A stretch of 64,000 nt of DNA. Source: Eledone cirrhosa. Lineage: Eukaryota. Of the stretch, positions 4,580 through 63,931 are shown piece by piece. The DNA lies in the NCBI GenBank assembly GCA_964016885.1, contig OZ024741.1, positions 62,620,001 to 62,684,000 on the forward strand, in the 5' to 3' direction. A program made the position numbers and the translations under genes. Position 1 is the first letter of the stretch. The number at the start of each line of letters is the position of its first letter. The notes below the pieces were generated by a model, which saw nothing but the letters and a program-made list of their open reading frames with translations, was not told the DNA's origin and searched no databases.

Positions 4580-4766
4580 TTGTTTCTACGTTTGGCACAA
4601 AGCCAGAAATTACTCAGTACATTACTGGTACTTTATTTTATCGACCCCGTAAGGATGAAAGGCAAAGTTAACCTCGGCGGGATTTGAACTCAGATCATAA
4701 ATGGACGTAACTCTATGCTTCAAAGCATGGTGTCCGACTCTCTACCGATACTGACAATCCACCGTC
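4580..4766 (-). mobile_element. tRNA-derived SINE with MetaSINE-like central domain
   Basis: On the minus strand: A-box-like (t)ggcagtatcgg, B-box gagttcaaatcc, central gttaactttgcctttcatccttacggggtcgataaaataaagtaccag. More than 15 copies in the window. Confidence 0.85.
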
Positions 4767-18667: not shown

Positions 18668-19021
18668 TGTATGTATGTATGTATAGGTGTATGTATGTAT
18701 AGTTATGTGTGCATGTGTGTGTTTTGACAGAATGTGTGTAAATATAGAAAAGTTGGAATAGGAAATCACAATGCCATCAATTAATAAAACGGTAATAAAA
18801 AATATCAGATCTGTTATCGATCAACTTGTGTACAAAGACTGACAGTAACTACAAAATCAATGAATACTAAGTTTTCATTCAATGGAGGTATTGAGTATCC
18901 TCTCTCTACATCACGTACCATCGCTTTCTCTCCCCTTTTCTTTCTCTCTCTCTTTATCCATCCATCCATCCATCCATTCATCTATCTATCTATCCATCTA
19001 TCTATCTATCTATCTATCTAT

Positions 19022-19762
19022 CTGGCAGTGCTACCGAGGAGCTCTACCAGTTCGAGACAAGCTCTACAGACATGGGCGCCCGGGCAGGGACCCTGCAAAA
19101 AAGATCTGTCCGAGGTGCGTGCGAGACGAAGAAACCGTCGCGCACGCATTCATACACTGCCCGGGCGTCACTGACCTGTGGGGCTATGTAGAACGACTAT
19201 TGTCGCGGGTGGGACCAATCCAGTTGACCACCGAGTCCATTGTCATGATCAAACCGCCACCCTCCTTCAAAAACGAAGGAGAGGCGGTTTTCCTTTGTGT
19301 GATAGCTATGGCGAAAGAGGTTGTATGGTGGACAAGGTTGAAAGGGCTGAGGTCAGACACCTTTCTCTCCGGCCAACAACTGATTCTTTTTTTCAAATAC
19401 CACTTTGGAAGAAGAATCAGGATGGAGAGAGAGGTGCTGTACCCCAGCAAGTTTTATGAAAGGTGGGTGAAAGTGGCGAGAATGGCCCGAGTGAATGGGC
19501 CTTCTCTCTATATCAGCCTGTAGGTTGAGGAAAAGGAGGAGGAGAGGAAAGGAGTACAAGCTCTTCGTACTCCTGGAGATGAGGGTTGCACATTTTTTTC
19601 GGGGGTCTGTGTTACCCATATAAACTGTCTCCCTCTATTGGGGAAAATCGACTAACTTTTAAATTCCATCTGTGATAACATTTTACACGTTTTTATTGTA
19701 TGTAAACTTCCCCCTTTGTATTTGTCCCCTTCTTTTGTGCCCCTGTGGCTAATAAAGAAATA
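19022..19762 (+). mobile_element. 5'-truncated Tx1-clade LINE (ORF2 C-terminal CCHC plus 3' UTR)
   Basis: WQCYRGALPVRDKL..CPRCVRDEETVAHAFIHCP; ends aataaagaaata(tcta)n; preceded by (atct)n. Confidence 0.92.
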
Positions 19763-19800
19763 TATCTATCTATCTATCTATCTATCTATTATTTTTCTCA

Positions 19801-21142
19801 CAAGGTGTTTGCACTAACCCAGAAATGGGCCAAGTGTAAGCTGTCCCTAAAAGGCCGGGCGGAGGTGGCGAACATTTACATAGCGTCCGTCACTTACTAC
19901 CGCCTGACTGTCGTGCCTTGCCCTAAGGAAACACTCACCACCATTGAACGCATGCTCTTCCAATTTCTTTGGAAGAAGCGCCCTCCTATGGTGAGAAGAT
20001 CCATCTGCTGCCAACAACCTTCGAAAGGAGGGCTGGGGATGCCGTGGTTGATGATGCGTAGGCACGCATTAAGGCTACGGCACCTACAGGTATTCCTCAC
20101 TGGTCAACCGGTGTGGGCTCCGTCGTGAAACGAGCCTTTCCGAGACTCGTCTCGCTCACCGAGCTGCAGTCCTGGGTCAAGCAAAGATCCGGAAAACTGG
20201 GAGACTGGCACACTGAGTGTGCTCAGGCGCTCAGGGCTCTCTGGCAAGCGGGCCAGGCCATCGGTGGAGAATCCACCTCATCATTCTATAGAGGGCTGGT
20301 GGCTAGCAGGGGCGATGACACCCTTGGAGAATCGCTGGACATGGAAGAGGATGAACTGGCCAGCCTGTTCGGTAGGACTTTCGGCCCGGGACCAATGGAC
20401 AACTTCCAGAAGTCACTAGCCTGGCAGTGCTACCGGGGGGCTCTACCCGTTCGAGAGAGGCTCTACAGACACGGGCGCCCGGGCAGGGATCCCTCGAAAA
20501 AGATTTGCCCTAGATGCGTGCGTCACGAAGAAACCGTTCCGCACGCATTGGTGCAATGTCCGGGCGTGGCTGATCTGTGGGGCTACGCCGAACGACTGCT
20601 GTCGCGGTTGGCGCCAATTCGATTGACCGCCGAGTCCGTGATGACAATCAAACCGCCTCCCCTCTTCACAAAGGAAGCAAAGGCGGTTTTTCTGTGCGTA
20701 ATAGCCATGTTGAAAGAGGTTGTTTGGTGGACACGATTGAAAGGTCTGAGGTCAGGCAACTTCCTCTCTGGCCATAGTCTGGTCTACTTCTTCCGATATC
20801 ACTTCGGAAGAAGGATAAGAATGGAGAGAGAGAGGTGCTTGGCCACAGGCAGTTTTATGAAAGGTGGGTGATAGTGGCGAGAATGGCTCGTGTAAATGGG
20901 CCTTCTCTGTATACCATCCTGTAGGTAAAGAAGTGAAGGAGAGGGGAGCACCTTCTCCATGTGCTCCCCGGGCAAAGGATTGCACACTTTTTCGGGGGTG
21001 TGTGCAACCTCCATCACGTCCCCTCCCTTTTGAGGTTGTTTTCGATTATTTTAATTGTATACCCTTTTTACTCGATTTGTATGTAAACTCCCCCTTTGTA
21101 TTTGTCCCTTCTTTTTATGCCTTAATGGTAAATAAAGAAATA
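19801..21142 (+). mobile_element. 5'-truncated Tx1-clade LINE, near-identical to 28962-30302
   Basis: Direct sequence match by eye; ORFs 19745-20128 and 20113-20871. Confidence 0.95.
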
Positions 21143-32760: not shown

Positions 32761-33281
32761 ATATTTATATATATATATTAGTATTGGTGCTCTGAAATAT
32801 CGATGTATACATGAATGTATGTATAGTATATTTGGCAATATACTGTATGTTTAATTAAAAACAATTAGAAGACCATTTGCTCTCAGTTTTAAAGAAGTGA
32901 CTACGTCACTTATTTTTGGCAACGGAGGGGAGAGTGGCTGCCAGTCTGTTTCTTGCTGAGAGAGAGGAGGGGGGAGAGAGATAGTAAACAATGAATTGAA
33001 TTTTAAAACAACCAGCCGAATGTAAAACATGACCAAGTTATGAAGTGTTGTGTAAGCTTCAGCGAACTAACCACCATGTCCGTAGTTAGATACGAAATTA
33101 CAGATTATTGTGAGGAGCCAGAGAATCTAATGAAATCAAGTGTCTTTGCAATGTAGATGTTATTAAATGCTTTTATAGTAAAATCTGTTTACATAGAGTT
33201 ATCTGAGCATAAATATAAATGAATATTTGGCGCTATATAAAATTGCATAGAACGTTAATATATGGTTAAAAGTGTTCCATG

Positions 33282-33352
33282 TATTTTATTATGCGCATTT
33301 CAAAAACAAATATCATCATGGGATGATATTTGCGTTCTCATCAGATAAAATA
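33282..33352 (-). ncRNA. Type I hammerhead ribozyme (family B), intact
   Basis: Exact reverse complement of 33445-33515. Confidence 0.88.
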
Positions 33353-33444
33353 GGGAGACATGGTATGAATATGTTGATTTAACATATGTTGATTTAACAC
33401 TTCACTGCTCGCAGGTGTTCTTTAAGGTTCATATCATGCCTCCC

Positions 33445-33515
33445 TATTTTATCTGATGAGAACGCAAATATCATCCCATGATGATATTTGTTTTTGAAAT
33501 GCGCATAATAAAATA
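33445..33515 (+). ncRNA. Type I hammerhead ribozyme (family B), intact
   Basis: Stem I UAUUUUAU/AUAAAAUA; CUGAUGA 33453-33459; 16-bp stem II with one mismatch; GAAA 33496-33499; palindromic stem III AUGCGCAU; AUA cleavage predicted after 33507. Confidence 0.9.
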
Positions 33516-33891
33516 CATGGAACTCTTTTAACCATCTTTTGATTTTATATTATTTATACTCCAATCCTATAAACTGTTGAGTGCTACTTATCCGATATTT
33601 GCATTGCTTTATTGTGCTACAATAAAACTCGCCTCCTACATATATATATATATGTATATATATATAAAAAGGAACGATCGACTTTTTTGTCAAATCGGAC
33701 CGAGGGAACAATGTTTCCGTTGGTCTTTCCAATTGCTAATACTATCTATCCGTCGCAACTCCAGGTAGAAGGAGCAACGTGAAATAAAGTGTCTTGTTCA
33801 AAGACATAACGCATCGCCTGGTCCAGGAATCGAACTCACAGCCTTACGATTGCGAATACAATCCTCTAACCACTCAGCCACACGCCTTCAC

Positions 33892-37467: not shown

Positions 37468-37519
37468 GTAAGTATGTATGTATACGTACATACATATATG
37501 TATACAGACGTACAGTAGC

Positions 37520-37594
<75 letters not shown>

Positions 37595-37930
37595 CATACA
37601 GGCACACATATATATATGTACGTATCAGTTTAGCGAACATTTAATATAATGTTCGCTTTGTTCGTTTGTAAACAAACTGACAGCCTGATTTATGCCGTAC
37701 GGTGTTAAGGCAACCACGTCACCATTTCTTTTTTGTTTTTTTTTTGTTCAACACTGACACAGGAACGATGTACTAGTTTCAAGCTTGTTAGCTATCGTCA
37801 GCACCGTATACCCTTCTGCCAGATGGTTGAACGTTCGAAAGTATATACTTTCCTTATGAAAATTAACGGCTGAGCAGTAAGTGCCGAACTAAGAGTGAGA
37901 AATGAAATTTCGTTTCATTCTATTCCATTT
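37468..37930 (-). mobile_element. Diverged monomer of the family C hammerhead element (see 54959)
   Basis: Colinear similarity to 55020-55410 (gaacattta.tataatg, gtttgtaaacaaac, ttgttcaacactgaca.aggaacg). Confidence 0.8.
37765..37807 (-). ncRNA. Minimal type I hammerhead (family C), intact
   Basis: ACGGUG-CUGACGA-U-AGCU-AACA-AGCU-U-GAAAC-UA-GUA-CAUCGU. Confidence 0.82.
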
Positions 37931-37951
37931 ATATATATATATATATATATA

Positions 37952-38452
37952 TATTGTTATACTTTGGGAGGGTCATGTTGCCAATAAGAAACACACGCAC
38001 CAGTTGCTTTCACTTCAATTTAATTTATTATATATTTATAAATTTACAAATTTATAAATTTCTGGTTGGTTGGTTGGTTCCACAACCAGATAGTTGTTTA
38101 TATATATATAGTCATAGTTCTTTCGTCACACACAAACAAAATGGCGTAGGATAGAAGAAAGGAAAGGCACAGAAACGAAGAAAGAAATCCCCAGTCACTG
38201 AAGAGGTCACAGAGTGTGTGACGAAAGAACTATGACTATATATATATATAAACAACTATCTGGTTGTGGAACCAACCAACCAACCAGAAATTTATAAATT
38301 TGTAAATTTATAAATATATAATAAATTAAATTGAAGTGTAAGCAACTGGTGCGTGTGTTTCTTATTGGCAACATGACCCTCCCAAAGTATAACAATATCG
38401 GTTTCAACACACGATTTCAGATAAAGAATCTTGCTAAACAAATTCAGAAACG

Positions 38453-38456
<4 letters not shown>
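37952..38456. mobile_element. Inverted pLTR-only foldback of the Penelope family at 1205
   Basis: Arms 37952-38133 / 38214-38397; 38140-38456 matches the reverse complement of 1205-1490; (TA)n on both sides. Confidence 0.88.
38193..38237 (+). ncRNA. Minimal type I hammerhead (family A), intact core
   Basis: AGUCA-CUGAAGA-G-GUCAC-loop-GUGAC-GAAA-G-AA-C-UA-UGACU; cleavage predicted after 38232. Confidence 0.8.
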
Positions 38457-38877: not shown

Positions 38878-40422
38878 TTAGCTGTAGTGTTGGCGGATCT
38901 CGGGAAGCATGGAGGCCTTAAAGGATGCAGTGTCTCGACAGCTAACAACTGATGCAGGTAGTTTGTTCCATGCTTCAGCAACTCTGAGCGTGAAAAAATG
39001 TTTCCGAAAGTCACAGGAACTGTGCTGTTTTCTTACTTTGTGGGCATGTCCACGTGTGTTAGACACATGGAAATCAAAAAGGTACTCAGGGTTGTTGTTG
39101 GCAACATGGTTAACAATTTTGTGGGTGTTTACCAAGTCAGTTGCCAGGCGTCGGAGCTTCAATGAATCCATGCCCAGGGAAGCAAGGCGCTCAGAGTATG
39201 GTAGATGCCTGATGGAGGGTATTCGCTTGGTTGCACGTCTCTGAACAGTTTCCAGGCGGTCAATGTCCTGAGCAAGATAGGGGTTCCAGACTGGTGATGC
39301 AATTTCTAAGTGTGGTCGCACCATAGCTGTATACAGCCTTAAATAGATATCTGGAGAGCGGCTGACAAAGGTCTTGCTGAGTGATGCTAAGACACCCTCG
39401 GCCCTCTTGACAATTTTAGAGACGTGCCTCGTCCAACGCAAATCGCTGCTGACCGTAATGCCCAGGTCACGTTCACAGGAAGACTTCTTGATATTAGTGC
39501 TGTGGAGGGAGTATGTGGACGCTGGGTTTTTACTCCCAAAATGCATGGTGGTGCACTTGTCCACAGCTAGCTTGAGTTGCCAGTCTGAGATCCATTGTTG
39601 CATTGTGTCCAGGTCAGACTGCAAGCAAGATCTATAGTGTTCAGGATCTGTCCTTTTTATCTCAAGGTACAGCTTGATGTCGTCTGCGTACTTTAGTACT
39701 GTGGCATTCCTTAAGTTGGCATCTATGTCATTAATATATGCCACAAACAAAAGGGGGCCAAGAACAGATCCCTGTGGTACACCAGATGACATCTCATATG
39801 GTGAGGAATGCTGTCCCAGAACCGTGACTACCTCTCTTCGACTGAGAATGAAGGACTTCAACCAGTTAAAAAGATCATCCCTCACACCCATTGCAGAGAG
39901 TTTTGCCATAAGCTTTTTGTGTGGCGCAGAATTGAAGGCCTTCGCAAAGTCAAGGTAAACAACATCCACCCATGAGCCGCCATCAGTGATCCGGGTGATG
40001 TCCTCAAGAAACTCTATAAGTTGATCACAGCAGCTGGAGTTGGGGATAAATCCAAATTGCGAGGGCCGGATAAGACTGTGAGAGATCCAGAAGTTCCAAA
40101 GTGTTTCTCTGACACAGGATTCCATCAGTTTGTCAATGCAACTAGTAAGACTGACTGGACGATAGTTCACAGGTGATGTGCGGTCACCCTTTTTGAACAG
40201 AGGAATGACACTGGCAGTTTTCCACTGTTCTGGAGTAGCACTGTTGTTCAGACAGAATTGGAAGAAGCGTGATAACTGGTGTAGAAAGAAGTACCCACCA
40301 CGTTTAAGAAGCAGGTACGTAACACCATCAAGACCAGGAGAGGCATGGTTGCATTTATTTTTTAGGTGACGTGGCAGCAATGCAGGTGTAAATTCCATGG
40401 TTGTAATAGAGTCCGGTGTCAT
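38878..40422 (-). CDS. CR1 ORF2 reverse transcriptase portion
   Basis: 514 aa with NYRPVSLTS, YLDFAKAF, GVPQGSVLGPLLF, KYADD, RDLG, RGH..K..RKHFF..RV...WN.LP. Confidence 0.92.
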   Translation of the reverse strand: MTPDSITTMEFTPALLPRHLKNKCNHASPGLDGVTYLLLKRGGYFFLHQLSRFFQFCLNNSATPEQWKTASVIPLFKKGDRTSPVNYRPVSLTSCIDKLMESCVRETLWNFWISHSLIRPSQFGFIPNSSCCDQLIEFLEDITRITDGGSWVDVVYLDFAKAFNSAPHKKLMAKLSAMGVRDDLFNWLKSFILSRREVVTVLGQHSSPYEMSSGVPQGSVLGPLLFVAYINDIDANLRNATVLKYADDIKLYLEIKRTDPEHYRSCLQSDLDTMQQWISDWQLKLAVDKCTTMHFGSKNPASTYSLHSTNIKKSSCERDLGITVSSDLRWTRHVSKIVKRAEGVLASLSKTFVSRSPDIYLRLYTAMVRPHLEIASPVWNPYLAQDIDRLETVQRRATKRIPSIRHLPYSERLASLGMDSLKLRRLATDLVNTHKIVNHVANNNPEYLFDFHVSNTRGHAHKVRKQHSSCDFRKHFFTLRVAEAWNKLPASVVSCRDTASFKASMLPEIRQHYS

Positions 40423-40473
40423 AGGTGGTGGAGATGGTACACTCTGGTCTTCAATAGTGAAAATGCCTGCATA

Positions 40474-41660
40474 TCATTCAGCAATGAGCTCTGCGCATTC
40501 CTTGGGGTCGTCAGTAACCTGGCTTGTGTGGGGATTGCTAAGAGGACCAACTGGAGAGTAAGGCCTCTGCTTTGAGTGAACATACTTCCAGAACACCTTA
40601 CTGTCAGGGCTGGTTGCTATGCGCTGCTCAAATTGAAGCACTGCCTTTTTTGTCACCTGTTTGAGGTGGTTGGACGATCTATTTCGCCTCTTCCTATTAA
40701 TGTCTGATTTGTGAAGTTTGTACTCACGTTCAGCATTGCGCCGTTCTTTTCTGGCAAGACGGACTGCTGCAGTCTCCCAAATAGCGCTTTTGGGATGTTT
40801 TTCCCGCTTACGTGGCACCGATGCTGCACATGCTGTCCATATTGAGCTCAGGATGTTCTGGAGTACAGTGTTGACATCTCCAGAGTCGTAGAACTCAAAC
40901 CAGTTTGGCCGTTGCAACTCGGTGCAGTAACAGTTCCAGTCTACTTTATTCCAGTCAAAATGAGCAGTTTGGAGATAGTTGTGGTTCTTTTTACTGCCCA
41001 TGAGGGATAGATTGGCAATGATCATAGCATGATCAGAGTCACCTAAAGGTTCCTCAGCAGTAACACTAATGACCGTTGCAGGAATAGTGGTGAAGAGTAG
41101 GTTCAAAGTGTTGTCACCTCTCGTTGGTGAGGTGACCACCTGGAACCAACTCGAGTCCAGCACCAGCTCAAGGAAGTCATTTGCAATTGGCGGCCAACGA
41201 AAGGTCTCCCAGTCAATCTCAGGGTGATTGAAGTCACCTGCAATGAAAACATAAGTGCCTGTCTTCCTGGCAGCAGCTCTGAGGATATCACAAAGTTGAG
41301 TGTCCTGATGGTCATTTGGGGGACGGTAAACGACTCCAAGTAGCAGTGTTGACATGGTCATACGTATATCGCAGAAAAAAACTTCCTGCTGTGATTGGTT
41401 CAAATCAGCACAAGGAATTGCCGACAGATTTGACTGAACGTAGACCATTACACCACCACCACGACGATTAATGCGGTCTTTACGAAACAGGTTGTAGCCA
41501 GTCATGCTGAAAACCCATCACAGAGTAAGGGATGTGCCCAAGTTTCCGTGACTGTAATGAAGTCCGGGTTGATACTTTTGACGTAGGAGTCAAAAAGATG
41601 AATCTTATTGCATAGACTACGTGCATTCAAGGACCGCAACTTGTACTTTGATTCCAGTCT
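40474..41660 (-). pseudogene. CR1 ORF2 APE endonuclease portion (frameshifted at ~41515 and ~40470)
   Basis: LNARSL, TVTETW, RKDRINRRGGGV, VYRPP, GDFNHP, PTRGDNTLNL, SDHAMI. Confidence 0.9.
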
Positions 41661-41695
41661 ATGATTATGTGCAGGGGATGGCAGGTTGTTCTGAT

Positions 41696-42930
41696 TTAGT
41701 TTCCCAGAGTTTTTTCAGTTTCTTTATTGTCAGTTGTTGTGGGTACAGTATTTTCAGACCAGCTGGTGTCTCTTTTCCATGATTCGCCAGCCTTAACAAA
41801 CTTCCATATCTGCCCATCATCTCGTAGGCTGAAGCTTTCATGTTCTGCCGAGCTGCGGTTTAGGGAAGCTGCAGCACGCAACTTTGGGCGGACATCAGGT
41901 GGAAGACCAGGACGTGTTCGGAAAGCAATCCGACTTTCACGCCTAGCTTTATCAGAGGCTACAAGGTATGAACGTGCCTCAGTTGAGTTTTAAAACGACA
42001 GTCTAATTAACCTGGGTTTCGGGCCTGGTCGGCCAAGGCGTAGGGAACCCTTTGCGGGAGCACAGCCCAGGTCTTTGGATGAACTGGCAGCAAATGCCTG
42101 AAGATCAACTATGTCTTCCGGCACACCAATAGCAATCACTTCGTGGTTTGCAGATTCAGTGGCATTCTCAATGCGTCTAGGTTCAGCATGAGGTACGCGG
42201 AGATTTTTTAACCAGGCATTCCGGTAAGATCCCTCATTGTGGGGTTCTACACGAACGCTTGATTTTATTTCCGCTATTTCTTGACTTAAAGCGGAAATCA
42301 TTTGCCGTATTTCCTCAAACTCCGTATTGACGGTCGGTTTTTGTTGTTGTTCTTCTCCTTCAACAGGCATGGTAGAAGACACAGTCGTCGGTTGTTGTTG
42401 TTGAAAAGTAACGGGTGAGGAAGACATGGGTTGCTGTTGTTGATGAAGTCCTTCAACGGGGGTAGTAGCAGAAGCTACGGTCGTTGGTTTTTGCTGTTGT
42501 TCAGGAACAATGGTAGAGGAAGACACGATCCTCGGTTTTTGTTGTTGTTGTTCGGGAACAATGGTAGAAGACACGATCTTCGGTCTTTGTTGTTGTTGTT
42601 GTTCCGCAGCAATGGGAGAAGCAGGCATACAGTCCAGGCACTGAAAGGACCAGTTTGTTAGCTGGACCATCTCCCAGAGTCCATCCATCGTAGCAATATG
42701 ATGTTTCTTATTTTGGCCTGGGATCTTCCGGAAGCCTGTGGCTCATTGAAGGCAGACAGAGATGCGACAGGTTCCACATTCGACCCAACGATTACGGAAC
42801 GAGTTTTCGGGTTCCGTACAGATATGGCAGGTGTGATCTTCTGGGCAATGTTCTATTTTGGAACATCGACCAGTTTTGTCGCATACTTCATCGATGGATA
42901 TCACCATGGCAATTTTGTTATTTCTACCCA
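41696..42930 (-). pseudogene. CR1 ORF1 with PHD-like finger and Gln-rich repeats, frameshifted
   Basis: CHIC...WVECGTC...FQCLDC; RLGRPGPKPRLIRLSF; QQQQKP repeats. Confidence 0.75.
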
Positions 42931-48382: not shown

Positions 48383-49259
48383 TGTAGCGATATCTGTCCA
48401 CGCCTTGAACCTTGGGTGACATCTAAGGGTCAAACTTTAGGTCACCACCCTTTTGGTGTGAACAGGTTCATCCTCTCAAGGTGGGAGACAGAAAGCGACA
48501 GGTATATAAAGCCTATATTTTCCCACCTTGCATACAGAGAGATCGGAGCACCACGATACAGACAAGCTATGTGAAAGATTCACCGCTATCTTCAGGCCGC
48601 AGAGCTCAATAGACATACAGAGCGATCAGAGCAGTATGCTATTACAAGCTATGTGAAAGATTCACCGCTACCTTCAGGCCGCAGAGCTCTACAGACATAC
48701 AGAGCGATCAGAGCAGTATGCTATTACAAGCTATGTGAAAGATTCACCGCTATCTTCAGGCCGCAGAAGTGTACAGACATACAGAGCGATCAGAGCAGTA
48801 TGCTATTACAAGCTATGTGAAAGATTCACCGCTACCTTCAGGCCGCAGAGCTCTACAGACATACAGAGCGATCAGAGCAGTATGCTATTACAAGCTATGT
48901 GAAAGATTCACCGCTATCTTCAGGCAGCAGAGGTGTACAGACATACAGAGCGATCAGAGCAGTATGCTATTACAAGCTATGTGAAAGATTCACCGCTATC
49001 TTCAGGCCGCAGAGCTCTACAGACATACAGAGCGATCAGAGCAGTACGCTATTACAAGCTATGTGAAAGATTCACCGCTTCCTTCAGGCCGCAGAGGTGT
49101 ACAGACTATTACTCTCTCAGACTACGCCAGCCTCATGAACCAACAACAAAAATAACATTGTCAACCTTCGCAACTCGTGGTTATATGTTTATTGTTCTTT
49201 TTGATTGAAGTGAAGTAAACCTTTATATATAAAATATATCGGCCATTCTTGTTATTTCA
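48383..49259 (+). mobile_element. Probable solo LTR containing a tandem array
   Basis: Starts TGTA after (TA)n; TATA-like tatataaa 48503-48510; 3' end uncertain and abutting a SINE. Confidence 0.45.
48563..49106 (+). repeat. 82-bp tandem repeat, about 6.6 copies
   Basis: caagctatgtgaaagattcaccgct recurs at 48563, 48645, 48727, 48809, 48891, 48973, 49055. Confidence 0.97.
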
Positions 49260-49855: not shown

Positions 49856-52800
49856 GACAGCAACAACTGTAGCAGTAACAACAGAAGCAACGGTAACAGC
49901 AACAATCCCAGCAACTGTAGCAGCAACAGTAGCAAAACCAGCACCACCACCACCACCCACCGCGCCAGAATTAACACCAGCGCCTATGCCACCACCCACA
50001 CCAGCATCACCAGCCCCACCACAACAAACACCAACACCATCACCATCATTAACCCGAACACCACCATAACCAACACCACAGAAATCACCAAACAGAGAAA
50101 CAGAAACAAACCCACAACAAACGCAAATAAAACAAAACAACTAAAACGATACACACCACACAGCATTAAATTTGAACAACAACCAATTATTTCACTACAT
50201 CCAACACAACACCAGCATCACAGAAAAAGACTACACAACACCGCAAAAATTCACACCACCTCCACACATACAAATCACTCGCATCACACAGAAAACGTAC
50301 ACGACACTAAAATAAAATTCCCCAAGGACATCGGAGACTTCCGACAAACACTCTCCAAGAGGATTTATAAGGACATCCTTCCGGAGGAGGACACAAGCAG
50401 TGAGAAGGATGGAGAAACCATCCTTCCTCTACGAGAAGTTAGGTAAGTGGTCTTTCCCATCTTTTTCCACTCCTTTTCAACATGAAATCACTCAGAATAG
50501 GGAGGATAAATGCGCGTGGTCTGGGGTCGTCATGGAAGTAGGTCCACCTGCTCAACGACCTCAGGTCACTAAACATAGATGTGGTGGCCATCAGCGAGAC
50601 AAGAATCTCCGAAGCACGGGCCTTTGCACCGATCTTCGGTGGCTACGATGTGTACGCATATCCCAGCCGTCCTGGACCGGGGGGTAGGAGTTGCTGTGCT
50701 TTTTCGGAGAGGTTTGGATCTCGCCATACGGGCCATCTTCCTGCATCTAGAATATAAGTTAGTGGTGCTGGACGTGACCAGCGGAGACGGGCAAGCTTTC
50801 AGGCAAGTGGCCGTCTATGCTCCGACAGGAGCATGGCGGCCTGATTTCTTCCGGCGTCTGGAGACCTTTCTTGGAACGTCCCGCTTTTTAGTGTTAGTGG
50901 GCGACTGGAACGGGATCTTAGATGCACTGGGTGGGCTTAGCGGATATGGGAGGAGGGTGTAAAAGCCTCGCAAACCTGCTCAGACGGTTTCAACTGTCTG
51001 ACAGGTACCGTCAGGATTTCCCGAATGTGCCAATGTGGACTTGGACAAACCGCATAGGGTCATCCAGATCATATCTAGATAGGGTATTTTGTAGGGAAAT
51101 AGATAGGTCTAGCATAGATGACCACATTTCAAAATAGTCGATTACACGGAACACAAATTCGTGATCTGTGAGGTTGACTTAGATAGGCTTCATAGACAGG
51201 GACCCGGCTACTGGAAGCTAAACGCCTCATTAACAGCGCGCAAGCCCTACGGAGACCGGATTAGCGGACTAGTTAAGCGGGCATTGACGGGGGCCATCGT
51301 CAACAACAAATGGTGGTTTGCTCTGAAAAGAGCGATTAGAATAGAGTCCATTAGGTTTAGTAAGGCTTTAGCAATAGAGAAAAATAGAACAGAGGGAGAA
51401 TTAGTTAGAAAATCAGACGAGGCGATTAGTAAAGGCATTGCGACCGACGTACTTGCGGTGAAATTGGTCCTTGACCAATTCTTCAATGCAAAGGACGAAG
51501 GTTGCGTTGTCAGAGCTAGGGTGCGTGCTCTTAGACACGAGAGGAAGAAAGCGGTTCAATGGGCCCGAGTGGCGGAGGCGCGTCGAGGTAACAAAGTCAC
51601 GATCCGGTCTTTGGTGGATCACGACGGGCGCATGCTACTCGATCCCAGGAAAATGTGTGAAGCTTTTCAGCGACACTCCGCTCAGCTGTTCGGGGGCAGC
51701 GGCGGGCCGGATCGAGGGATGGACTGTAGTGCTTACCTCGACGGACTGCCGCGGCTCTCGGCCACTGAGGCGGAGTATTGCGTAAATACAATAACAGCCG
51801 CTGAAGTACGGGAGGCAATGACTGGCTGCACAAGGGGTAAATCGCCTCGTTTGGATAGTCTGCCCTATGAACTTTACGTACAAATGCCAGACTTGTTCAG
51901 AGGCCTCTTGGCGGACGTCTCGTGCAACTGGCAACAGAACGGGATAATTCCCGAGCGTGTGAGCCGAGGAGAGGTGGCACTGCTGAGAAAGGATCCGAAC
52001 AAGGGGGATAACAGATCATTTCAGGCCCATAACTCTGCTAAACGCAGAGTTCAAGAGTTGGGCATAGGAGCTAGCAAAGAGGTTGGCGCTTGGCGCTTGT
52101 TGTTGGTGGTCTGGTGGGAGAGGCGTAGATATGAGCCATTCCAGACAGATCCATCCACGACAACCTCCAACTCATGCGATACACCGTGAAGAGGGTAACT
52201 AGGGAACCTGCCACGGGTGGGTCCTTGATCAATTTAGATCAGTCGATAGGGTCAAGCATCGTTATCTGGCAGCAGTCCTGGGCCCGTCATGAGAGTGAGA
52301 GTGAACGGTCACCTTTCGGACCGTTCAACATCATGCGCTCGGTCCGCCAAGGATGTCCCATCTTGTCCCTCTTGTACGTATTGACCACAATTCAGCCGCT
52401 GAAGTACAGGAGGCAATGACTGGCTGCACAAGGGTTAAATCGCCTCGTTTGGATGATCTGCCCTATGAACTTTACGTACAAATGCCAGACTTGTTCGGAG
52501 GCCTCTTGGCGAACGTCTACTGCAACTGGCAACAGAGCGGGAGAATTCCCAGCTCTGTGAGCCGAGGAGCTGTGGTGCTGCTGAGAAAGGTTCCGAACAA
52601 GGGGAAAACAGATAATTTCAGGCCCATAACTCTGCTAAACACAGAGTTCAAGATTTTGGCCAAGGTGCTAGCAAAGAGTTTGACGCTTGTCGTTGGTGGT
52701 CTGGTGGGAGAGGCGCAGAAAATGTGCCATTCCCGACAGATCCATCCACGACAACCTCCACCTCATGCGATACATCGTAGAGAGGGTAGCTTTAGATCAG

Positions 52801-54696
52801 TCGAAAGCTTTCGATAGGGTCGACCATCGTTACCTAGCGGCAGTCCTGAGGGCGGCTGGCTTTGGGCCCGTCTTCAGAGGCTGGATCGCTGCCATGCACA
52901 GCGACATCTGCTCTGTAGTGAGAGTGAACGGTCACCTTTCGGAACCGTTCGACATCATGCGCTCGGTCCGCCAAGGATGTCCCCTCTCGTCCCTATTGTA
53001 CGTATTGACTCTCGAGCCATTACTGCACAAACTGGAGACGTTGAGGGGGGTCCCGCGCGAACTAGGATGCGGAAGATCCGTGTCAGCATATGCCGACGAT
53101 GTCACCGTAATGGTGTCGAACGCCAAACACATCGAGGCGATCGGCACTACACTAAGATAATACGAAGCGGTGACAGGAGCAATGATCAACCAGGAAAAGT
53201 CAGTGGGCCTGCAGCTCGGCACCTGGAGAGGCAGGTCCATGCCGTCCAACAGCGTCGTCGGGCGCTGGACGGACGGACCGGTTAAATTGCTAGGAGTCTG
53301 GTTCGGTCCAGACCTCCAGACGGACAAAAACTGGGACGAGGTGACGAGCAGGGTGGCTTCTCTCACCCAGAAATGGGCCGAGAGGAAGCTATCCCTGAAA
53401 GGTCGAGCGGAGGTGGCGAATGCGTACATCGCGTCCGTCATCTACTACCGCCTGACCGTCGGACCTTGTCCTAAGCCCCGCCTGACTGCGCTGGAGAGTT
53501 TGCTCTTTCGCTTCTTGTGGAAGGGACGCGCTCCGATGGTCAGGCGGTCCATCTGCTGTCAACACCCGCTACGTGGAGGGCTGGGCATGCCGTGGCTGAT
53601 GATGCGCAGACACGCGCTCAGGCTACGACATCTCCACCTCTTCCTCGACGGTGATCAGGTGTGGTCGCCGTTTGCTAGACACGTTTTTCCCCAGCTCGTC
53701 TCCTTGACGGAGCTGCAGTCCTGGGTCAAGCGAAGACCGAGAGGGAGCGCTTGGAGACTGGAATGTCTTCAGGCGCTCACAGCCCTCGACCAATCGGGCA
53801 ATGTGATCGGTGGAAACTCCACCTTGGCGTTCTATAGGGGATTAGTGGAGGGGAAGAGCGACGACGTACTTGGAGAAACTCTAGGCGTCGACGAAAATCA
53901 ACTAGCCAATCTCTTTGGAAGGACTTTCGGGCCGGGGCCTATGGACAACTTCCAGAAATCCCTGGCCTGGCAGTGCTACCGAGGAGCTTTGCCAGTTCGG
54001 GATAAACTCTACAGGCATGGAGGTGCCGTCAGCCGGGCATGTCCGAGATGCGCGCAGGGCGACGAAACCGTCCTGCACGCACTCGTCCAGTGTCCGAGCA
54101 TTGATGACTTGTGGGTTTATGTCGAACACCTGCTGTCACGTGTAGGACGGATTCTATCAGCTGAGTCCATCGTGAGGATTGCCCCGCCGCCTTCCTTTAG
54201 CCGGGAAGGGCAGGCAGTTTTTATCTGTTTGGTGGCCATGGCGAAAGAGATAGTATGGTGGACACGTTTGAAAGGGCTAAAGACGAGCACTTACCTCTTA
54301 GGTGATGCCCTGATTAACTTTTTCAAATTTCATTTGAAAAGGAAAATCAGGGTAGAGAGGGAAGTGCTCTCTTCCCAGCATTTTGTTGAATGATGGGTGA
54401 GAGAAGCAAGTATGGCCCGAATGAATGGGCCTTCTCTGAGTATGTGTCTGTAAATTAAAGGTGGAAAACTGGGAGAGGGCACTTGCCCTGGTGGTCAGGG
54501 CCACTGTGGTCTTTTAATGGGCTTTCTCCACAAATGTCCCTCGGAAGTCTCCCCCCTATTGGGGAATTTTTCTTTGTTATTTTATTTCATCCTCTGTTTT
54601 TTTTACACGCAGAAATGCTCATTTGTACCGTCCGGTTTTGTCCTGTACTGTCCTTAATGTCTACTTCATGTAAACCCTTGTGGTTAACAAAGAAAA

Positions 54697-54730
<34 letters not shown>
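49856..54730 (+). mobile_element. Second Tx1-clade LINE family, 5'-truncated in ORF1, (TTA)n tail, disrupted ORF2 with internal duplication
   Basis: ORF2 from ~50482 MKSLRIGRINARG; GDWN, DQSKAFDRVDH, QGCPLS, AYADD, CPRC..ETVLHALVQC; tail 54699-54730. Confidence 0.92.
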
Positions 54731-54890
54731 ATTAGTAGCACAGATTAAAACTTTTGATATGTAACAATAATAAATATTTGATATACTTATATACATACAA
54801 CCTTTATCGCGTCCTACCTAGATTTTGGACTTTGTATTTATTATGAATTACTACTACTATATATATGTGTATGTATATATCTATGTTTAC

Positions 54891-54961
<71 letters not shown>

Positions 54962-55225
54962 AACGGAAAAAATGAAACGAAATTTCATTTCCCACTCCTA
55001 GTACGGCTGTTACTTATATATAAGTATGTACACGTACATACATATATGTATACAGACGCACAGTAGTATGTGTATATATATACATACATGCACACATATA
55101 TATATGTACGTATGGATTCACCGAACATTTATTATAATGCTCGGTGTGTTTGTAAACAAACATCCCGTATTAAGCCGTAGTGTCTAGCAACCATCGTTGC
55201 TCGTTTGTTCAACACTGACAAAGGA

Positions 55226-55268
55226 ACGCTATACTAGTTTCAAGCTTATTAGCTATCGTAAGCAACGT
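55226..55268 (-). ncRNA. Family C hammerhead, G5>U degenerate copy
   Basis: Core reads CUUACGA. Confidence 0.6.
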
Positions 55269-55688
55269 AGACCTTCCTGCCAGATTGTTGAACGTATATA
55301 CTTACCTTATGTATATTAACGGCTAAGTAGCCCAATTTGCATATCGAGTGGGTTAATCGGCCGGGTGCACCGAAAACGATAAACGGAAAAAATGAAACGA
55401 AATTTCATTCCCCACTCCTAATACGGCTGTTACTTAAATATAAGTATGTACACGTACATACATATATGTATACAGGCGCACAGTAGTATGTATATATATA
55501 TAAATGTACATACTTATATTTAAGTAACAGCCGTACTAGGAGTGGGAAATAAAATTTCGTTTCATTTTTTCCGTTTATCGTTTTCGGTGCACCCGGCCAA
55601 TTAACCCACTCGATATGCAAATTGGGCTACTCAGACTTTAATATGCATAAGATAAGTATATACGTTCAACAATCTGGCAGGAAGGTAT

Positions 55689-55731
55689 ACGTTGCTGACG
55701 ATAGCTAATAAGCTTGAAACTAGTACAGCGT
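55689..55731 (+). ncRNA. Minimal type I hammerhead (family C), intact
   Basis: ACGUUG-CUGACGA-U-AGCU-AAUA-AGCU-U-GAAAC-UA-GUA-CAGCGU; cleavage predicted after 55725. Confidence 0.82.
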
Positions 55732-55934
55732 TCCTTTGTCAGTGTTGAACAAACGAGCAACGATGGTTGCTAGACACTACGGCTTAATATGGGATGTTTG
55801 TTTACAAACACACGGAGCATTATAATAAATGTTCGGTGAATCCATACGTACATATATATATATGTGTGCATGTATGTATATATATATACATACTACTGTG
55901 CGTCTGTATACATATATGTATGTACGTATACATA

Positions 55935-56001
<67 letters not shown>

Positions 56002-57118
56002 TATATATGTGCGTGTGTGTGTCTTCTTGTGTATGTGTGCGTGCATGAGTGTATCTGAGAGTGCGGATCTTTGTATGGATGCAAGTCATCTTTTAACTGG
56101 ACACAAGATGAAATCTAACAGTTGAAAAATTGTTTTATATGAGATTTAAAATTCTCAACAATTTCTAAGGGAAACAACGAATAAATGAAGTTCAAAAACT
56201 CTTTCTTATTTTATTTGTTATTATAAACTTTTGGCTAGTTTCATAGTTACGAAAGTATTGGAAACGAGAAGGGATTCAATCATTTTAATCAAACAATATT
56301 AGAATGAATATTAATGAAATAAAATAGAAGAAAAATACAAAATTAAGCAAAACGAAAACAAAACTTAAAGTTATTTAACGTCATCAGCCGTGTGGTGCCA
56401 AGTGTTTTAATGGCTTATCTTAAAATATCAGAAAACAAGGAAATTACAATAATAATTTCAATAGCAACAGAAAAATCCATTAAACTCTACAGCTGAAAAA
56501 GATAACTCACAACTGAAATGATTAAAATAGCAGCTAATATTAGAAGGATTCACTAGACACTTGTTTTTCATCCATCCTCGACTATTAGGGAATTACGTAA
56601 ATTCAATAACAAAGACACGGGGAAATATATATAAAAGAAATTAGAATTTGGAATATTAATCCTAGGTCATCATTCAGAGTTCTTATGAAAGATAGAATGT
56701 AGCTTTGGTTTCATGACGTTAGAAGAACTGTAGATTCTTTTGGACAAAAAAAAAACAGTCAATCATAAGTAAGATTCTAAGATGATTTGATTGATACATA
56801 GTTCCTTAAGCCAAGGAAACTGAAGTATTCCTACAGAAAGCTCTTCTCTCTCCCCCATCTCTCTCTCTCTCTCTCTCTCTAGTGGTTATATTAAAACGCT
56901 TTTACTCCTACTCGTATTGTTACCAATATGAAAATGAAAATAAATTGAAGTTTAAGGAAAATTTGCTGGCTCAAGTATCTTCAGATTTGATGTTTTAAGC
57001 CAGGAATTATTGAAAAGAATTACTATCAACTTCGCCACTTTTTACTGGTACTGTGCTAGTGTATATATACACATACACCAACACACACACCAACACACAC
57101 ACACACACACACACACCA

Positions 57119-63644: not shown

Positions 63645-63710
63645 TATTTCATTATATATATTTCAGGGATATCATATTAACAATATGCTATGCCTTCCTC
63701 AGACAAAATA
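63645..63710 (-). ncRNA. Type I hammerhead (family G), intact
   Basis: UAUUUUGU-CUGAGGA-AGG..CAUAUU-GUU-AAUAUG..CCU-GAAA-UAUAUA-UA-AUGAAAUA. Confidence 0.8.
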
Positions 63711-63865
63711 CAATATAAACAGTTTTATAGATAAATAGATTCGACATACCGTAACAACATCGACTTGTATTTGAAAAAGTTGAATTGCCAATTCAACTTT
63801 TTCAAATACAAGTCGATGTTGTTACGGTATGTCGAATCTATTTATCTATAAAACTGTTTATATTG

Positions 63866-63931
63866 TATTTTGTCTGAGGAAGGCATAGCATATTGTTAAT
63901 ATGATATCCCTGGAATATATATAATGAAATA
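63866..63931 (+). ncRNA. Family G hammerhead mirror copy, A13>G
   Basis: Same fold, but GGAA at 63912-63915. Confidence 0.6.

Follow-up and report, generated by a model that had tools for sequence, protein, structure and literature searches.

The repeat at positions 54959-55944 of the window (the whole 64,000-nucleotide stretch of DNA analysed here) is very probably an insertion of a protein-free, hammerhead-bearing 420-nt retrozyme, likely pasted into a (TA)n microsatellite by the enzyme of a Penelope-like element (PLE) from an RNA, circle or multimer, that would be continuous across the predicted ribozyme cut. Judged from its sequence features, the family probably belongs, as a new member, to a class already described, the animal non-LTR retrozymes. 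The window locus is an ordinary decayed copy among thousands, and the value of the finding lies not in this locus but in the link between retrozymes and PLEs, which is made testable.

Positions in the repeat unit (U) were numbered on the hammerhead-sense strand, with U1 at 55378 and U420 at 54959. The locus consists of two oppositely oriented arms joined by their 5′ ends. Arm 1, with its sense on the minus strand, is a full 420-nt unit (54959-55378, GC 37.6%) preceded by a 5′-truncated partial unit of 0.3 unit length (~U296-420, 55379-55503). Arm 2, on the plus strand, runs from ~U349-420 into U1-364 (55506-55944). Both arms are 5′-truncated and meet head to head at approximately 55503-55506, in TA-rich sequence. 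The outer end of arm 1 carries a 56-nt tail (U365-420, 54959-55014, minus strand) and is the tailed end of the insertion, while arm 2 ends untailed in (TA)n. The target microsatellite flanks the insertion on the left (54858-54958) and on the right (55945-56008); because both flanks are (TA)n, a target-site duplication is not readable here.

The initial annotation of this locus was partly confirmed. The 420-bp head-to-tail period that it reported is exact, with 115 of 120 bases matching at offset 420 (next best offset 55), and the second, partial unit, from 55379 to ~55503, agrees with its estimate of about 1.3 units. The inverted arm, given as ~438 bp, measures 439 bp (~55506-55944), and is identical to the first unit at 351 of 366 positions. 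The unit had been called non-coding, and the longest stop-free frame in a natural dimer of the family is 53 codons; no RT/GIY-YIG ORF was found upstream of the repeat at the window locus. The position of the cut site also held. What did not hold were the claims of one hammerhead in each unit at this locus and of a plain monomer near 37468.

The predicted type I hammerhead domain lies in the plus arm at 55664-55750, with its core at 55695-55725 and the predicted cut GUA/CAGCG at 55725/55726, just where it had been placed. The core comprises CUGACGA, a stem II of 4 bp above a U-U pair, then GAAA, a palindromic stem III of 2 bp and finally GUA; stem I is 6 bp long (55689-55694 with 55726-55731) and is extended by further helices. 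The hammerhead of the full minus-arm unit (55232-55262, minus strand) carries a G5 to U change at 55260, and an adjoining stem I base is altered. G5 is essential in the hammerhead, and this core is predicted to be inactive. A strict hammerhead scan of the window returned only the sites at 55695(+) and 37801(−). One hammerhead per unit is thus a property of the family but not of the locus, where only the plus arm has an intact core, the two hammerhead sites lie on opposite strands, and the 0.3 unit has none. With a single intact ribozyme and a mutated minus-arm core, this copy is expected neither to set free a monomer nor to yield an RNA circle; the proposal of a circle joined at 55725/55726 is not supported for this locus. 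The pair of consecutive units with complete hammerheads that marks a retrozyme as active in the available text of 10.64898/2026.07.22.740005 is absent from the window locus; two consecutive intact ribozymes were seen at 19 of the 128 sampled family loci.

The ribozyme call rests on the core motif and its pairing and not on a family model, because Rfam gave no hammerhead match: its hammerhead models had no match at E ≤ 10 within 55560-55840, and no hammerhead appeared among the 150 of 165 window matches listed. Rfam miRNA matches were rejected as TA-rich hairpins below threshold. When isolated, the 76-nt hammerhead domain was predicted to fold no better than its shuffles (z −0.9). In a family alignment of 14 related, hand-picked rows, 95% of cells pair and covariation is thin, with 1 of 29 pairs changing on both sides; one stem I pair is U-G, G-U and A-U in three subfamilies. 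The hammerhead core is identical across subfamilies that are only ~74% alike overall, and this constancy suggests that the ribozyme is under selection. In the portion available of a Xenopus study, 8 of 9 predicted retrozyme dimers failed to cleave in vitro (10.64898/2026.07.22.740005).

Genome-wide, an exact 31-nt core occurs in 12,756 copies, compared with none in a reversed control. The family was sampled as 29 best-matching loci, 30 sister-subfamily loci and two position-ordered samples. Sample 1 contained 68 loci picked by the hammerhead core in chromosome order, and sample 2 contained 60 loci picked by a motif downstream of the cut (60 regions from 100 matches listed). The search for multimers of the monomer that had been suggested as a check gave dispersed copies with head-to-tail multimers of up to 10 units, most loci having 1-2 units. 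Arms of at least 8 units have no ORF, and neither a tRNA gene nor a tRNA head was found. Dispersed tandem units a few hundred base pairs in length, a type I hammerhead, the lack of a protein and low GC are the sequence features of retrozymes, and the family has all of them. Among the papers listed by searches of the openly accessible literature, none deals with the 420-nt family or with how retrozyme insertions end.

The second copy in the window, at 37468-37932, had been described as a diverged monomer (37468-37930). It is diverged (74% identical), but it is a head-to-head pair of a sister subfamily: a minus-strand arm without U1-48 (U49-364, 37468-37877), with an intact core at 37801-37771 and its untailed end in (TA)n, is joined to an inverted 56-nt tail on the plus strand (U365-420, 37876-37932, 86% identical), which is followed by (TA)n. 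The sister subfamily (also at L087, L098 and L100-L103) has a period of 466-490 nt with the same core and the same end rule.

Array length varies within the family. The arrays at L076-L078 each contain 6-8 units that differ by few private changes, and a young subfamily defined by three common markers holds most of the long arrays (L024, L030, L076, L077, L078, L150 and L189); these are the best candidates for active source loci. At L075 (3015-7766) and L152 (2337-4273), A and B units alternate with a dimer periodicity. The duplicated units there carry variants absent from the flanking arm or partial unit, and in L075 a change that breaks ribozyme stem II is found in 4 of 5 A units. A dimer circle is conceivable for L075, but DNA duplication fits better, and the periodicity of both loci is best explained by duplication after insertion. 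Because some long arrays probably grew at the DNA level, array length alone is no proof of rolling-circle copying, and the long arrays were set aside as evidence for it.

The ends of the copies follow a simple rule. The 3′ ends fall at ~U364 or ~U420, 56 nt apart, in 110 of 128 arms in sample 1 and 91 of 108 in sample 2, and these canonical ends abut a TA run in 92 of 110 and 77 of 91 cases, respectively. The 5′ ends at the 128 position-ordered loci are variable and spread over the whole unit; an apparent pile-up at U1 was discounted, 11 of the 15 cases inspected running a few bases into the tail. Among 76 head-to-head pairs (L156 being counted twice through a local duplication), 54 had both ends canonical and 22 had one end at neither site. 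Of these 54 pairs, 49 combined one tailed with one untailed end, 3 were untailed twice and 2 tailed twice (binomial p = 2e-10). Both the window locus and the 37468-37932 copy obey this one-tail rule. The inversion junction differed at each of the 42 pairs listed, save for the L156 local duplication.

The 5′ truncation, partial tandem, inverted 5′ copy and single tail seen in the family are the features of PLE-type insertions. Where its text was available, PMC8557442 describes PLE insertions with partial tandems, an inverted copy truncated at its 5′ side and a tail that is often confined to one end. The available text of PMC11167929 reports that a purified PLE nicks both strands of AT-rich DNA and that PLE reverse transcription starts from two internal positions, which form the limits of the tail. 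RT/GIY-YIG frames as long as 1096 codons are present in the genome, most with a zinc-finger-like motif before the nuclease; judged from this motif, the families appear Neptune-like by the description in the accessible part of PMC8557442. Copies of these PLE families mostly end in (TA)n and have tails of 50-58 nt. In one of them, the head-to-head pair L073, the tail is carried by one arm and lacking from the other, following a TA-like motif. From this shared end rule and the published two-start-site behaviour, it is likely that a PLE enzyme inserted the 420-nt repeat. The interpretation in the initial annotation therefore survives in part: a retrozyme-type element, dispersed, tandem, ORF-less and hammerhead-bearing, moved by PLE machinery, whose two-start-site rule its ends obey.

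Under the preferred explanation, a locus with two or more intact units would be transcribed, and a PLE protein would bind the unit RNA in trans. The enzyme would nick both (TA)n strands and reverse transcription would be primed at two internal sites, U420 and U364. Each cDNA would extend back for a variable length through the unit joints, and the two 5′-truncated cDNAs would then be joined head to head. The minus-arm ribozyme of the window locus was probably inactivated afterwards by point mutations (~2.5% between arms).

The nature of the RNA template can be read in part from the way in which copies cross the cut. In sample 2, picked downstream of the cut, 67 of 71 units pass the cut site and reach at least U135, and starts at U144-150 number 3 among 108 arms, compared with 1.8 expected. 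Since the units run past the cut without an excess of starts there, cleaved linear monomers were not the usual template. An earlier stop-at-cut test (1 of 131 sites) was discarded as biased, its loci having been picked for an intact core, and was redone on the downstream-motif sample. In a sample partly picked for intact cores, the cut site is free of indels in 146 of 147 units. Opposite arms also resemble each other: variant sites are common to them in 27% of cases versus 3.5% between loci, rare alleles in 7.6% versus 0.22%, and a rare allele is found in both arms at 9 of 33 loci (212 units and 75 loci at least 88% identical, from 97 loci). Part of this sharing could reflect gene conversion within the inverted repeat. 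For eight subfamily markers, chosen from 20 candidates after the table was seen, 40 of 47 multi-unit carriers were uniform, and 4 of the 7 mixed cases were from L156, which holds separate insertions; all 20 markers gave 53 uniform and 43 mixed cases. L155 has mixed variants.

These data fit a template of one type per insertion that is continuous across the cut, and a circle and an uncleaved homogeneous multimer fit them equally. The 'circular or multimeric' template of the initial annotation thus holds as an either/or, in that cDNA nearly always runs through the cut and multi-unit arms are internally homogeneous. That the partial tandem points to a circle in particular is not supported, because PLE reverse transcriptase, in the part of PMC11167929 available to us, primes internally and uses mainly unprocessed RNA in vitro. 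Analogy with the retrozymes of coral, mussel and axolotl is the sole ground for proposing cleavage and circularisation here. A monomer circle would have nearly even chances of having been the main insertion template; an uncleaved multimer is a realistic candidate at somewhat under even chances, and other main templates are improbable.

The strongest competing account is itself a variant of the preferred one, with the same element and the same PLE enzyme but no circle: a tandem array would be read through into a transcript that serves, uncleaved, as the template, and insertion would not depend on the hammerhead. We consider it quite possible, if short of an even bet. It too predicts the absence of a stop at the cut site, and the young homogeneous arrays of 4-8 units at L076, L077 and L189 are possible sources for such a transcript. 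According to the available text of PMC4209133, minimal PLE hammerheads cleave poorly. Three observations speak against it. The core unchanged across ~74%-alike subfamilies suggests selection for the ribozyme; a natural monomer is predicted to pair extensively when folded in circular form (−140 kcal/mol, z −8.3 versus 60 shuffles, a value inflated by a TA-rich hairpin); and the fixed 5′ end that a transcription start might give was not seen.

The search for a parent PLE covered 46 GIY-YIG stretches from 150 scored of 10,597 candidates. No PLE sharing the unit at its own 3′ end was found in the 46 stretches around GIY-YIG matches, nor was a pLTR homologous to the unit in these stretches, which are a small part of the 10,597 candidates. 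Among 58 ORF ends, the unit follows only one, at L244 (828-2300). This locus is chimeric, with a PLE pLTR arm on the left and a PLE nuclease end fused to U204 on the right. Here the coding sequence of a nuclease of the L064 family passes, in its final codons, into U204 via ~7 nt of microhomology, both outer ends are tailed, and the pLTR and hammerhead of this PLE family differ from those of the 420-nt unit. We did not take L244 to prove a partner, because a deletion between the 7-nt microhomologies fits as well as a template switch and because both outer ends are tailed. Copies near PLE ends at L055, L072, L132, L174, L216 and L228 were rejected as parents, lying apart from the ORF or in opposite orientation, and ORFs beside the window copies proved to be LINEs instead of PLEs.

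In a bolder version of the preferred reading, a Penelope enzyme would have copied a small circular RNA through twin-primed, rolling-circle reverse transcription and left the family in the genome as its record, and L244 would be a switch from that circle to the RNA of its helper PLE. We regard it as doubtful. If true, one 420-nt circle primed at two fixed sites would account for both arms and all tandem units, and the template switch at L244 would name the helper PLE partner.

That the copies are ordinary 5′-truncated pLTR debris of an autonomous PLE yet to be found is improbable. The end anatomy is that of PLE pLTR pairs, among them the one at 37951-38455, a family found elsewhere next to GIY-YIG-like ORF ends and joined to them, and the partner search was shallow (46 stretches). 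However, arms that pass U1 run into the tail of the previous unit and not into an ORF, and some reach 8 or more units, still ORF-less. The initial annotation had named copies always attached to a PLE ORF with fixed ends as the outcome that would count against a retrozyme; among the 128 position-ordered loci, PLE coding sequence was joined to the unit only at the chimeric L244, with its differing pLTR and hammerhead.

Very unlikely is a fold-back (MITE-like) DNA transposon or a satellite spread by DNA-level copying. The locus is indeed a long inverted repeat in TA, and the dimer-periodic L075 and L152 fit DNA duplication after insertion, but the junction varies at the 42 pairs listed, except L156, one end exceeds the other by precisely the tail, and most loci are dispersed with 1-2 units. 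The family lacks the fixed element with equal terminal inverted repeats that defines a MITE, and the variable junctions already largely refute the fold-back transposon reading. An assembly artefact can practically be dismissed on the sequence itself: assembly is difficult where inverted repeats lie in microsatellites (PMC8557442, available text), but 11 of 257 non-repetitive positions distinguish the arms, with private changes in each, and the asymmetric build recurs at dozens of loci with differing junctions.

The preferred explanation, a retrozyme inserted by a PLE enzyme, agrees with what the available texts report of animal non-LTR retrozymes (PMC7229834; 10.64898/2026.07.22.740005): tandem, ORF-less units of a few hundred nucleotides with low GC, a single type I hammerhead in each unit, copy numbers in the thousands and co-existing PLEs. 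The U-U pair under stem II and the 2-bp stem III recall axolotl HHR_Amex2 as described there, and the unit size of 420 nt is near that given for mussel repeats (350-390 bp). In those accounts RNA circles and cleavage are shown, whereas the 420-nt family is known here from DNA; PLE mobilisation was proposed in them from co-occurrence and pLTR homology, whereas here it is suggested by insertion anatomy and a homologous pLTR was not found in the stretches searched. Unlike the retrozymes in these accounts, most 420-nt loci are 1-2 units in head-to-head pairs. As in published type I hammerheads, the short palindromic helix III is expected to need a dimer, and opposite-strand pairs lie 100-700 bp apart. 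The 6-bp helix I and 4-bp helix II resemble canonical type I sizes; unlike the published set, the 420-nt units form ORF-less tandem multimers.

Endonuclease-positive PLE insertions, in the available portions of PMC8557442 and PMC11167929, share with the family 5′ truncation, partial tandems, an inverted 5′-truncated copy, a single-end tail, AT-rich or microsatellite targets and a hammerhead in the repeat. The 420-nt family differs in that the RT/GIY-YIG ORF is absent and the whole element is the repeat. Its 56-nt tail compares with 30-40 nt for the PLEs in these texts and is close to the 50-58 nt of the genome's own PLE families. The Chlamys PLE MRC1, in the available text of PMC8557442, is likewise non-autonomous, pLTR-forming and multicopy, with head-to-tail insertions. 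Unlike the 420-nt unit, the MRC1-type Chlamys PLEs resemble an autonomous partner at the 3′ end and, by the same text, belong to a clade without canonical hammerheads.

In the available text of PMC7229834 and 10.64898/2026.07.22.740005, the PLE as mover of animal retrozymes is still a proposal, and the one-tail end rule lends independent support to such mobilisation. A direct test now has its reagents, namely an RNA of 420 nt with a predicted pair of priming sites, (TA)n as the target and a choice of candidate proteins, and it would also settle whether PLE reverse transcriptase can copy a circle.

Several other features of the window were recorded. A head-to-head pLTR pair of another family lies at 37951-38455, with arms (37951-38133 and 38214-38398) that are 98% alike, a hammerhead-like motif at 38198(+) and a ~58-nt tail on the right only; its relatives follow GIY-YIG-like ORF ends in L005, L132, L153 and L228. 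A palindromic element at 33262-33535 has hammerhead-like motifs with a long stem II at 33344(−) and 33453(+), with similar sequence in 25 fetched loci. A near-perfect palindrome at 63676-63900 and beyond has such a motif at 63702(−), and is similar to sequence in 10 fetched loci. A broken LINE with AP-endonuclease and RT domains (38878-42742, minus strand) adjoins the sister copy and is unrelated to it. The 3′ part of another LINE (52684-54734, plus strand), which has an RT domain, a zf-RVT domain and, at 54698-54734, a tail of (ATT)n, ends 225 bp to the left of the insertion, and further zf-RVT pieces occupy 18864-20871. An 82-bp tandem repeat spans 48562-49106 (6.6 copies, 95% alike), and a SINE-like repeat is abundant, its 77-nt core occurring 11 times in the window (at 4626, 11307, 11534, 17460, 31226, 49314, 59435 and other positions).
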